32,000 bases of DNA from Phycisphaera mikurensis NBRC 102666 (GCF_000284115.1 NC_017080.1:390001-422000); one strand, 5' to 3'; positions 2,018 through 31,215 are shown, counted from the stretch's first letter. Program-made: numbers and translations. Notes: generated by a model from the letters alone, not told the origin.

Positions 2018-2065
2018 CCCGCGGACCGTCGGCGTTTCCGGCGTCCGAGCGCGGCGGTCCGCGGG
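2018..2065. repeat. short palindromic repeat copy R1 (CCGCGGACCG-N26-CGGTCCGCGG family)
   Basis: cccgcggaccg (2018-2028) and cggtccgcggg (2055-2065) are exact reverse complements. The 10-nt cores are separated by 26 nt. It starts 15 nt after the DUF2256 stop. The loop carries gcgtttccggcgtccgag, shared with R4 and (reverse complement) R6. Confidence 0.75.
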
Positions 2066-2251
2066 ATCGCCCGGGGTGGGTGTCCTTCCTCCGGGGGCTG
2101 GCGCCACGGCGGCCCGGGGGCAAGCGGGACGCCGCCCGCCGCGACCGCAGCGCCCCGGCCGACTTGCGGATTCCACGCGCCGCGGGTTTACTCCGCTCGG
2201 GTTGTCCCTCGGGTCGAAACCCCATCTGCTTCCCCTTCTCCTCCCACCAGG

Positions 2252-3073
2252 ATGTCATCGATGGAGAGTCCTCCGCCTCCTCCGCCGCGCGACGCGGCGA
2301 TCCCCCGGCTCCACGAGCGGCTCGACGCGCTGCAGGCGCAGCAGCGTTCGGCGCGTCTGTTCCTGCTCGGCCTTGCGCTGCTGCTGATCCTGATCGTGCT
2401 GCTGTTCGGCTTCGGCCTGTACCGCGCGGTCACCACGAATCTGTCGGTCGACAAGCTGCAGCCGGCGCTGATGGAGCGGGTCGAGGCCCGCGCCCCGCAG
2501 CTGCAGCGGACCGCGACCGAGGCGCTCACGCTGGCGATGCCGACCTACCAGCGGCTGGGCTCGGCGAAGATCGAGCAGATCACGCCGGCCCTGCGGGAGG
2601 GGCTTCAGCGGGAGTTCGACGCCCTGCCCGAGGCGGTGCGCGAGCGGCTCGACGAGCGGCTGGCCGGGATGCGCTCGCGGCTGGAGCAGACGCTGCGGGC
2701 GCGGGTCACCGAGCGTTTCGGCGAGATCCCCCCCGACAAGGTGGAACGGCTGGCCGGCGCCTTCTCCGACCGGCTGCTGGAGCGGGGCGGGCCCCTCCGG
2801 GCAGACCTCGAAGCCAAGTACGAGCTGCAGAAGCGGCGGGTGGAGGACGTGCTGACGAAGTTCGACCTGCCCGCCACCGCCGGCCTCAGCGACGGCGAGC
2901 TCCAGCTCAAGGTGATGGAGAACGCGGCCCTGCTGGTCGTCTACCTCGCGCAGAACCCCGATGAGCTGCCGGTGATGCCCACGCTCGGCGACCTCACCGG
3001 CCCGGACGGCGCGGCCCTCCGCGACGGGACCGAAGCCGGCGAAACCACCCTCCCCGGAAGCGACGAATCATGA
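2252..3073 (+). CDS. hypothetical single-pass membrane protein with helical, charged C-terminal domain
   Basis: ATG at 2252. Pro-rich N-terminus, then a hydrophobic helix LFLLGLALLLILIVLLFGFGLY, then an Arg/Glu/Leu-rich helical region. GC3-rich coding frame. No family recognised. Confidence 0.6.
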   Translation: MSSMESPPPPPPRDAAIPRLHERLDALQAQQRSARLFLLGLALLLILIVLLFGFGLYRAVTTNLSVDKLQPALMERVEARAPQLQRTATEALTLAMPTYQRLGSAKIEQITPALREGLQREFDALPEAVRERLDERLAGMRSRLEQTLRARVTERFGEIPPDKVERLAGAFSDRLLERGGPLRADLEAKYELQKRRVEDVLTKFDLPATAGLSDGELQLKVMENAALLVVYLAQNPDELPVMPTLGDLTGPDGAALRDGTEAGETTLPGSDES

Positions 3074-3765
3074 GCGACCGCACCCCCCCCACCGACACGC
3101 TCGCCGGCCTCGAGCAACGGATCCAGGAGCTCGCGGAAGCGGCCGCCCGACGCAAGCGGGTGCTCGTCGCCGCGGGCGTCGTCGTGGCCCTGCTCACGGC
3201 GGCCTACCTCGGCTTCGCGTGGCAGCAGATCCGCTCGCAGCTCGATGCGCCCACGCTCGTGGCCGCGGCCGAGATGCGGGCCCAGCCGCTGCTCGACCGC
3301 CCGGCCTCGTCCTGGGCCGAGGAGCTCGAGGCGCAGGCCCCGGCCCTGCTCGATGCCGCCGCCGCCGCCGCAATGCAGGCGCCCGAGCAGCTCTCCGAGC
3401 GGGTGCTCGGGTACGTCGACGCGGCCGTCGCGGAGCGGATGCCCGACCTGGAGAACCGCTTCGAGGAGCTGGCGGCCGCGCTGGTCGATCAGGCCGCCGA
3501 GGCCGCCGGCGACGGCTTCAAGGAGGGCCAGATGAGCGACGAGGAGGCCGAGGCCGTCGTCACCGCCATCGCCGACCAGTTCGACGCGTCGCTGCGCGAG
3601 AAGGTCGACGCCCTGTACGACGACTACACCGGCGTCTCCGGCGAGCTGATCGATCGGCTCGACAAGCTGGCCACCGGCGAGAACCTCTCCGAGAAGGAAG
3701 CGCTGCACCGCGAGCTGATCACCAGCTTCCTGGCGCTGCTGCAGCGCGTGCAGGCGAAGGGCTGA
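3070..3765 (+). CDS. hypothetical single-pass membrane protein, same architecture as the upstream gene
   Basis: ATG at 3070 overlaps the upstream stop (ATGA). One hydrophobic helix VLVAAGVVVALLTAAYLGFAW followed by an acidic Ala/Glu/Asp-rich helical domain. No family recognised. Confidence 0.6.
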   Translation: MSDRTPPTDTLAGLEQRIQELAEAAARRKRVLVAAGVVVALLTAAYLGFAWQQIRSQLDAPTLVAAAEMRAQPLLDRPASSWAEELEAQAPALLDAAAAAAMQAPEQLSERVLGYVDAAVAERMPDLENRFEELAAALVDQAAEAAGDGFKEGQMSDEEAEAVVTAIADQFDASLREKVDALYDDYTGVSGELIDRLDKLATGENLSEKEALHRELITSFLALLQRVQAKG

Positions 3766-3862
3766 AGGCCCGCGAGGCGGGACCCGACGGACCCGCCAAA
3801 CCCGCTCGCCGCGGCCTCTACGCTCGCCCGCCCGCCGCCCGCACCGCGGCGGGCGATCCGCC

Positions 3863-30288: not shown

Positions 30289-30391
30289 GCCCGCCGCGCC
30301 GGACGCCGGCGGGTGACGCTGTCGCGCCGCCCGAACCATCACGCCGGCATCGCTCCCGTTCCTCCGCGTCCGAAGCGGACGCCCCCCCGCC

Positions 30392-30670
30392 ATGGCACGA
30401 CTCCGCACCAAGAGCAAGAACACCTCCAAGCCCAAGCCCACCAAGGGCGTGTTGAAGCGGGGGCGGATCACCGCGAGCGGGAAGCTGCGTTTCTCGCGCC
30501 AGGGCAAGCAGAAGCTCAACGGCCACGAGCGGGGCGAGACGCTGCAAGACCGGCGGGGCTACGTCCTGGTGGGCTCGCACTCCGCGAAGATGGTCAGCCG
30601 GCAGCTGAAGCGCAAGATCGTGCCCGCCAACACGGGCCAGCCCGGCGGCGACGGCAAGACGACCCGCTGA
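30392..30670 (+). CDS. rpmI: 50S ribosomal protein L35 (with N- and C-terminal extensions)
   Basis: Basic 92-aa protein with KGVLKRGRITASGKLRFSRQGKQKLNGHE, resembling the L35 core (K.a.KRfk.TgsGKi.r..agk.H). It lies immediately upstream of rplT, as in the conserved rpmI-rplT arrangement. Confidence 0.8.
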   Translation: MARLRTKSKNTSKPKPTKGVLKRGRITASGKLRFSRQGKQKLNGHERGETLQDRRGYVLVGSHSAKMVSRQLKRKIVPANTGQPGGDGKTTR

Positions 30671-30793
30671 AGCGGCGGCGACGCCGCCCATCCGACTTTT
30701 CACCGACCGCGTTGCGGGTGAGCCTCGCCGGAGGCTCGCAAGCGGGGCTCGTGGCCCCCTCCGACTCCGCGTCCAACCCCCAAGGAGCACGGC

Positions 30794-31165
30794 ATGCCTC
30801 GTGCAAGCAAGGGCGCCGCACGGCGTCAGTCCAAGAACCGCTGGTTCGCCAAGGCCAAGGGCAACCGCGGCTTCCGCCGCAAGAACTGGCGGACGGTCAA
30901 GCAGACCGTCATCCGGTCCGGCGTCTACGCCTACCGCGACCGCCGGCTGGTCAAACGAGACTACCGCCGCCTCTGGATCGTCCGCGTCAACGCGGCGGCC
31001 CGCGCCCACGGCGTGAGCTACTCGCGGTTCATGCACGGCCTCAAGCTCGCCGGCGTCACGCTCAACCGCAAGATGCTCTCCGAGCTGGCCATCCATGACG
31101 AGGCCGCTTTCGAGGCGATCCTCAAGAAGGCCACCGACGCCCTGGACACCGCCAAAGCCGCCTGA
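30794..31165 (+). CDS. rplT: 50S ribosomal protein L20
   Basis: MPRASKGAARRQSKNRWFAKAKGNRG...YAYRDRRLVKRDYRRLWIVRVNAAARAHGVSYSRFMHGL matches L20. AAGGAG lies at 30782-30787, 6 nt before the ATG. Confidence 0.95.
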   Translation: MPRASKGAARRQSKNRWFAKAKGNRGFRRKNWRTVKQTVIRSGVYAYRDRRLVKRDYRRLWIVRVNAAARAHGVSYSRFMHGLKLAGVTLNRKMLSELAIHDEAAFEAILKKATDALDTAKAA

Positions 31166-31215
31166 ATCCGCGGACCGCGGCCTCCGGAGCCGGCAAACGA
31201 CGACGGTCCGCGGAT
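31166..31215. repeat. short palindromic repeat copy R6
   Basis: atccgcggaccg (31166-31177) and cggtccgcggat (31204-31215) form a perfect 12-bp inverted repeat. The cores are 26 nt apart. It starts at the base after the rplT stop. The reverse complement of its loop (tcgtcgtttgccggctccggaggccg) is homologous to the R1 and R4 loops. Confidence 0.75.

Follow-up and report, generated by a model that had tools for sequence, protein, structure and literature searches.

Repeats of the repetitive extragenic palindromic (REP) type are usually taken as extragenic selfish or regulatory hairpins that are spread by transposition. In REPINs, the hairpins formed by REP doublets, two inverted conserved ends enclose a less conserved spacer of preferred length (Bertels and Rainey, PMC3116915), and REPs have been reported behind genes, where they supply stop codons, and occasionally in open reading frames (ORFs; PMC3733652). 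Atypical hairpins with a CnGA foot, present in up to ~600 copies, flank class 3 HUH-Y1 genes, which occur mainly in Planctomycetes (Quentin et al. 2018, PMC6006769). Uptake sequences lie in genes without insertions or deletions (indels), are frame-biased and conserved in place, form hairpins after genes and fall in ORFs in 35–65% of cases (PMC2817400). Here, we describe a 46-nucleotide (nt) element, CCGCGGACCG-N26-CGGTCCGCGG, six copies of which lie in a 32,000-nt stretch of Phycisphaera mikurensis NBRC 102666 (NC_017080.1:390001-422000), hereafter called the window.

On balance, we lean towards reading the six sites as members of a lineage-specific REP/REPIN-like hairpin family of P. mikurensis and close planctomycete relatives. 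REP/REPIN is the best available label for this family, which departs from it by its fixed geometry, the conservation of its arms across species, its share of in-frame genic copies and its length-preserving occupation of genes. In contrast to the usual view of REP-like repeats, the Phycisphaera element keeps 20 invariant bases at a fixed distance that outlast diverged surroundings, and it stands in frame in conserved enzymes without added residues. We found no published description of the 46-nt family in the literature. The survey of Di Nocera et al. 2013 (PMC3733652) includes two Planctomyces species and leaves out P. mikurensis, which neither Quentin et al. 2018 (PMC6006769) nor its supplements mention by name.

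Six copies with invariant geometry

An earlier sequence-only reading of the window had proposed six exact copies, and the complete pattern indeed matches at 2019, 8075, 14235, 22767, 27044 and 31168. With genes assigned from codon statistics and Pfam, these copies (R1 to R6) and one solo palindrome are placed as follows.

R1, 2019..2064, plus strand: intergenic, 16 nt past the stop codon of a DUF2256 gene that ends at 2002; the strand with the T-rich interior is plus.
R2, 8075..8120, minus strand: within a 566-residue SPASM-domain gene (7528-9228, minus strand), in frame, with the translation AADRGAAEAVAAAVRG.
R3, 14235..14280, minus strand: within a degenerate PHP/TrpH-like gene (13970-14749, minus strand) downstream of hemC, in frame, with the translation AADRPPAAEVSAAVRG.
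R4, 22767..22812, plus strand: takes up most of the 68-nt gap between glnS, whose stop codon ends at 22759, and the topoisomerase IB (TopIB) gene, which starts at 22828.
R5, 27044..27089, minus strand: intergenic between two minus-strand genes, 139 nt past the stop codon of the gene at 27229-27921 and 27 nt before the start codon at 27016.
R6, 31168..31213, minus strand: intergenic, 2 nt past the rplT stop codon (TGA-AT-element).
Solo palindrome, 943..955, no strand assigned: the 13-nt CCGCGGTCCGCGG in an NmrA/DUF2867 gene, a single arm without a partner, at chance frequency.

Three copies stand soon after a stop codon, as the sequence-only reading had it (16 nt for the DUF2256 gene, 7 nt for glnS and 2 nt for rplT). 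Its statement that one copy sits 22 nt upstream of a start codon holds only approximately, the distances being 15 nt for R4, ahead of the TopIB start, and 27 nt for R5. The location of R2 and R3 in coding sequence had not been recognized. In each case, one frame has a positive coding score on either side, with a drop at the element. The arms of several copies extend to a 13-mer, CCGCGG-W-CCGCGG, as at 943-955, and an RsrII-type CGGWCCG site lies within that 13-mer.

A chance origin of the copies, already discounted in the earlier estimate, was rejected by shuffling and by the relation between mismatches and spacing. In 100 dinucleotide-preserving shuffles of the window, both the mean and the maximum number of matches were zero. 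Total arm mismatches were also tabulated for spacers of 16-36 nt. Across 51 kb of P. mikurensis, spacer 26 gave eight zero-mismatch copies; copies with one or two mismatches occurred at no spacer from 16 to 36, and the few three-mismatch matches at other spacers were chance-like. For 79 kb from relatives, spacer 26 gave 9, 3, 3 and 4 copies with 0, 1, 2 and 3 mismatches, respectively, and no comparable series appeared elsewhere: spacer 19 had one and five matches at two and three mismatches, some of which, at the least, are real copies matched to themselves with a shift, and the remaining spacers had 0-3 three-mismatch matches each. The invariant geometry is therefore real and holds beyond the window too. 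Unrelated high-GC genomes, searched with gap N{14,40}, gave a flood of isolated chance matches; used as a background control, they showed no enrichment of spacer 26 (3 of ~113 non-source matches).

Single arms behave differently from pairs. Because the window has a G+C content of 71-81%, short GC-rich matches are common in it. The window contains one exact 10-mer, at 946-955, besides those in the six pairs, which is about the chance level. When one mismatch is allowed, the arm has 43 window matches against 30.9 expected; ~20 of these 43 stem from the paired arms and their shifted self-matches, so solo arms are not enriched and the pair is thus obligatory.

Family size, spread and common descent

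The sequence-only reading held that its proposal of a family would fall if a genome-wide search turned up no further copies. More copies were found, both in 72.5 kb of the P. mikurensis genome, which contains, with the six of the window, nine perfect and four slightly degenerate ones, and in ~100 kb from related uncultured species, with >15 perfect and ~13 degenerate ones; all have the 26-nt spacer. Extrapolation from the 72.5 kb suggests that the whole P. mikurensis genome may carry ~450-500 perfect copies. The related metagenomic contigs encode GlnRS proteins 81-90% identical and SPASM proteins 66-72% identical to those of the window, and element density on them is similar. The closest homologues of the window's GlnRS come from Planctomycetota and Phycisphaerales. 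A metagenome scan yielded 53 additional loci, ~30 of them from a single marine assembly, and the motif is usable as a marker of Phycisphaera-lineage DNA in metagenomes. A phage origin was rejected, as a collection of viral contigs contained no element match. The P. mikurensis copies outside the window are listed here by contig and position.

L121:16477: perfect, 24 nt past the pfkB stop codon.
L123:8717: perfect, intragenic.
L183:10590: perfect, within trpE.
L183:6839: degenerate, 2 nt past the stop codon of an S49 peptidase gene.
L183:15866: degenerate (one mismatch), 4 nt from a stop codon, at the edge of a defence-island-like stretch.
L183:4502: degenerate, within a gene.
L183:20800: degenerate.

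The stretch bordered by the one-mismatch copy (L183:12898-21218) encodes a MmeI-family restriction-modification fusion, an HTH/M78 peptidase pair, a DEAD-box helicase and a T5orf172/MUG113 protein.

Loop homology had been proposed for R1, R4 and the reverse complement of R6, and the comparison bore it out: these interiors share 17/26 and 15/26 positions, where shuffling gives 9.7 on average and 17 at the 99.9th percentile. Between non-orthologous copies, interior identity reaches 20-22/26, with a shuffled 99.9th percentile of 15-17; an example is the trpE copy in relative L184 and the SPASM-gene copy in relative L128, from the same sample. Such shared interior motifs show that the copies derive from one another and did not arise independently. 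The copies form a dispersed family descended from a common sequence.

The presence/absence comparison that had been suggested for orthologous intergenic regions gave a partial answer. R4 is missing behind glnS in relatives L124 and L125. Excessive divergence or a lack of synteny precluded an empty-site comparison in the regions behind glnS and upstream of hemC. Right behind the glnS stop codon of L124 (11170-11195) lies CGGTCCGCGGACC, in which both arm cores are fused head to head around one CCGCGG; it may be the scar of an excision, a junction or a product of chance. The relatives also carry, in intergenic regions, an unrelated second family of palindromic repeats (GGTGCCACAGGCTTCAGCCTGTGGCACC-like; L124:5814-5883, L125:4887-4959 and L125 ~9585-9610), and L125 has one GGTGCCACAGGCTTCAGCCTGTGGCACC-like repeat just downstream of glnS, the place of R4 in P. 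mikurensis.

Conservation at orthologous positions

In orthologous pairs selected by a recognizable element, which is degenerate or absent in some lineages, arm positions were identical in 216 of 220 cases (98%), compared with 198/286 (69%) for the interior and 402/660 (61%) for the 30-nt flanks. The SPASM-gene copy (R2) is found at the same codons in four species with proteins of 66-72% identity; all 20 arm columns are invariant there, as are 10 of the 26 interior columns, while the flanks are ~50-60% identical. An S49 peptidase gene, too, is followed by the element in the layout of R6, 2 nt past the stop codon, both in P. mikurensis (L183:6839) and in a relative (L184:6777). Between these two species, the copy retains 18 of 20 arm positions, 10 of 26 interior positions and a spacer of exactly 26 nt. 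Such comparisons show that purifying selection or drive maintains arms and spacing in every copy, orthologous positions across species among them.

Copies within genes

All in-gene copies share one phase, xCC GCG GAC CGx … xCG GTC CGC GGx (AADR…VRG). This applies to 7/7 independent in-gene loci of the clade: the SPASM gene, the PHP-like gene, trpE, L123:8717, L124:1462, the 3' end of lgt (L182) and L183:4502.

At two sites, the effect of the element on protein length could be judged against distant homologues. The 16 element-encoded residues of R3 in the PHP-like protein align gap-free to 15 homologues of distant bacteria, and the right arm (AVRG) coincides with a natively conserved (L/I)(I/V)RGAGG motif. 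Among the orthologues of this site, arms are perfect at L184:1675 and match at 12/20 positions (eight mismatches) in L182, where the DNA alignment is likewise ungapped. The TrpE site is colinear among 14 planctomycete sequences, and its element residues align gap-free with Mycobacterium tuberculosis TrpE (5cwa). Five TrpE orthologues form an ungapped series with 0, 0, 1, 5 and 12 arm mismatches, the last two values belonging to L185 and L186. A clean 48-nt in-frame insertion was rejected for the PHP and TrpE sites, since neither differs in length from its homologues. At these two sites, the alignments suggest that the element replaced native codons one for one and was not inserted. Region length varies among homologues at the SPASM site, and the L182 copy at the 3' end of lgt brings +36 nt relative to L184 and makes the reading frame 15 codons longer than in P. 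mikurensis.

As the PHP and TrpE copies are ungapped and share their descent with the intergenic ones, the simplest reading is that the element was copied over partly similar native sequence. Such copying would have occurred without net length change; stepwise evolution under drive is the alternative. Length-neutral codon replacement is unlike the accepted spread of REPs or of miniature inverted-repeat transposable elements (MITEs), and we know of no established mechanism for length-preserving overwrite by a short repeat. It is conceivable, if on the whole unlikely, that Phycisphaera-type planctomycetes possess a sequence-specific process that writes the 46-bp motif over partly similar DNA with length unchanged and then keeps arms and spacing over species-level divergence. 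Such a process could be short-patch copying with other copies as template, or a drive of the uptake or repair type, and could also act in essential genes such as trpE. If true, overwriting would let repeats propagate by a route other than transposition, and a protein dedicated to recognition would have to exist.

Hairpin structure and consensus

The unit consists of two invariant 10-nt inverted arms, an eleventh Y-R pair and a spacer of constant 26-nt length whose sequence drifts away from a T-rich ancestral consensus. All copies fold as hairpins, with RNA energies of -36 to -51 kcal/mol (66 nt with flanks), DNA energies of -16 to -26 kcal/mol (46-nt core) and z values of -2 to -7. R1, for example, folds with -51.1 kcal/mol as RNA and -20.6 kcal/mol as DNA, and R5, the extended stem of which is GGATCCGCGGACCG, folds with -49.2 kcal/mol as RNA (z = -6.95).

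Stems of 11-15 bp including flanks, as given by the sequence-only reading, are correct for individual copies. Comparison of 52 family members lends support to no pairs other than the ten invariant ones and pair 11-36, the latter occurring as T-A in 17 members, C-G in 16, T·G in 16 and other combinations in three. A family-wide extended perfect stem with covariation was rejected: pairs 12-16 perform no better than shuffled partners, and the same holds for flank pairing beyond the arms. With support confined to pairs 1-10 and 11-36, the conserved object is therefore an 11-bp stem with a ~24-nt loop of fixed length rather than a long palindrome. Pair 11-36 covaries between C-G and T-A in both the SPASM and the TrpE genes, at the cost of a rare CGT codon and an Ala-to-Thr change. 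A test for the RNA strand at this pair (U·G versus C·A, 5 versus 2) was not significant, and its count is biased by the orientation procedure.

The oriented interior consensus is approximately T-S-G-C-S-G-TTTC-GG…T…GGCC-R, with two T-rich patches ~10 nt apart, and a weak flank consensus, C-Y-G-R-A-T/G, occurs on either side. A known RNA family was rejected, as Rfam covariance models gave no match in the window at gathering thresholds.

Competing explanations

The REP/REPIN interpretation, also raised by the sequence-only reading, draws on a short palindromic repeat in many dispersed copies, inverted conserved ends with a spacer of preferred and here fixed length, hairpin folding, and consensus features shared by interiors and flanks. 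In such a family, a dedicated protein would recognize arms and spacing, most likely in the form of a DNA hairpin on single-stranded DNA; the obvious candidate is an HUH/Y1 enzyme of the REP-associated tyrosine transposase (RAYT) or class 3 TnpA type. Behind stop codons, the transcribed hairpin may serve as a 3'-end or terminator-like structure. Part of the spread may have proceeded by length-preserving templated overwrite of similar sequence and not by insertion alone.

Several observations weigh against this interpretation. The GTAG or CGTC tetranucleotide is absent from the flanks. Four of the nine perfect P. mikurensis copies are intragenic (SPASM, PHP, TrpE and L123:8717), so the repeat is not extragenic in the REP sense; intergenic space is still strongly over-used by the copies. 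Colinearity of the PHP- and TrpE-gene copies with distant homologues is not what peel-and-paste or cut-and-paste transposition predicts. Interiors are old and far more diverged than arms, so recent copying alone cannot explain the perfect arms. The stem lacks family-wide support past pair 11-36, and there is no strand bias, the T-rich strand being sense at ~7 loci and antisense at ~5. As the sequence-only reading had stated, the window has no RAYT, either in the Pfam lists of its genes or by a scan for the HUH…Y motif. A Y1 transposase was not found by the HUH…Y scan of 1.26 Mb or in Pfam lists for the loci of P. mikurensis and its relatives, a weak negative because the P. mikurensis part covers <2% of the 3.8-Mb genome.

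Part of this evidence would suit a genomic signal written into place, that is, a bipartite double-stranded site for a chromosome-organizing, DNA-processing or uptake protein; substitution under selection or molecular drive would both create such a site and repair it where it stands. We grant this explanation a minor but real share of our belief. It would explain genic sites without a change in protein length, and it is in line with the colinearity of in-gene copies with homologues, the indel-free decay of the TrpE arms (0, 0, 1, 5 and 12 mismatches), arms and spacing kept while interiors saturate, and the lack of an orientation bias; the two spacer T-tracts ~10 nt apart could favor bending. 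The single frame with preferred codons at 7/7 in-gene loci is as uptake sequences show, and the ORF share of 4/9 compares with 35-65% for these sequences (PMC2817400). In-gene copies of the element are indeed indel-free and frame-preferring, but a single motif over-represented on its own is not found: solo arms are not enriched and the pair is obligatory, unlike uptake signal sequences (USS) or DNA uptake sequences (DUS). The ~40 bits specified go far beyond the needs of a positional signal, interiors shared at up to 22/26 positions between non-orthologous copies indicate copying and not convergence, and the copy at the lgt 3' end arrives with +36 nt. To our knowledge, natural competence is undocumented in Planctomycetes, which counts against an uptake signal.

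Convergent, factor-independent hairpins that terminate transcription or mark mRNA 3' ends without a U-tract, alike only through a preference for GC-rich hairpins, seem improbable. Seven of the eight intergenic P. mikurensis copies begin 2-24 nt past a stop codon and the hairpins are strong, so the terminator proposal of the sequence-only reading matches intergenic placement; in a scan of 20000-32000, canonical T-run candidates occurred at chance level only and none at element sites. No T-run follows the element at any copy, as an intrinsic terminator would require, and terminator function needs neither identical 10-nt arms nor an exact 26-nt spacer in all copies and species. The proposal cannot account for the conserved copies in the middle of the SPASM, PHP and TrpE genes, and R5 stands 139 nt past the preceding stop, with a start codon 27 nt further on. 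We regard as more doubtful still, and very improbable, a MITE moved by a DDE transposase that reads 10-14-bp terminal inverted repeats and duplicates an AT target. Its inverted ends are perfect, there is an excess of AT or GAAT…ATTC flanks, and presence or absence varies at orthologous intergenic sites. The AT flank is self-complementary, however, so a target duplication would look the same as an extended stem; the DNA examined showed no insertion sequence with such ends, and in-gene copies show no net insertion. At 46 bp, the element is also below known MITE sizes and too short for duplex end synapsis.

Other features of the region

Three tandem 588-nt units, 97-100% identical, lie at 17272-19036 between genes for a dicarboxylate symporter and an amine oxidase. 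Each contains a long inverted-repeat pair, CGCTCGCGTCGCTGCGCTCGCTCTTGTTGCTCG … CGAGCAACAAGAGCGAGCGCAGCGACGCGAG, and none matches a Pfam family. Exact protein matches place the window on contig JACHEL010000014.1 of the public draft assembly GCA_014207395.1, and that contig is 1289 nt shorter at some point between window positions 11829 and 20794, probably because this array collapsed.

The PHP/TrpH-like protein encoded behind hemC (13970-14749, minus strand) has HDLWFESDAGG where homologues have DLHxHSxxSDG, and GGSGYRG in place of GGSDxHG; it lacks a Pfam match and, from these motifs, may be a pseudo-enzyme. An operon-like set of minus-strand genes at 5742-11177 encodes a MptE/Maf-like protein, the 566-residue SPASM-domain fusion, a CMP-sugar cytidylyltransferase and a UDP-GlcNAc 2-epimerase. 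Its gene order is kept in relatives L126-L128, and the cluster fits nonulosonic-acid (flagellin) glycosylation. The gene directly behind glnS (22828-23907) encodes a bacterial topoisomerase IB of eukaryotic type, and the DNA polymerase III beta-clamp gene at 28100-29227 has no adjacent dnaA.

Comparison with known systems

The element adjoins stop codons in a genome region short of classical terminators, and the family offers a clean system for studying a hairpin-reading protein in Planctomycetes, a role as 3'-end signal and spread by overwriting versus inserting. Rickettsia palindromic elements are 100-150 bp long and add 30-50 residues to proteins. They share with the Phycisphaera element a palindromic repeat that stands in frame within protein genes and is tolerated by the protein. 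At the PHP and TrpE sites of P. mikurensis and its relatives, however, 48 nt stand in for 16 native codons and no length is gained on balance, and only the copy at the lgt 3' end adds sequence. With intrinsic terminators, the element has in common a strong GC-rich hairpin right after a stop codon; it differs in lacking a T-run, in an arm sequence that is identical everywhere and in its conserved intragenic copies.

Like the USS of Pasteurellaceae and the DUS of Neisseria, the family shows perfect cores, indel-free in-gene copies in preferred frames, hairpins after genes and orthologous conservation. Unlike these, it consists of an obligatory inverted pair 26 nt apart, with solo arms at chance and interiors that show copying. 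Towards class 3 TnpA-Y1 hairpins there is a lead, which is not a test: 30 of 114 half-flanks (26%) have a CNGA that ends 1-2 nt from the stem foot, against a background of 4%. The Phycisphaera foot fits C-Y-G-R-A-T better than a strict CnGA, and no class 3 gene was present among the loci scanned. The closest known kind, REP/REPIN sequences, likewise consists of short GC-rich hairpins in many copies that lie mostly just downstream of genes, are kept at orthologous positions and occur in some ORFs. Compared with them, the Phycisphaera element lacks a GTAG/CGTC tag, has ~40% of its perfect copies within genes, where they add no length, and combines an absolutely fixed spacer with arms that stay perfect although the interiors are nearly saturated.

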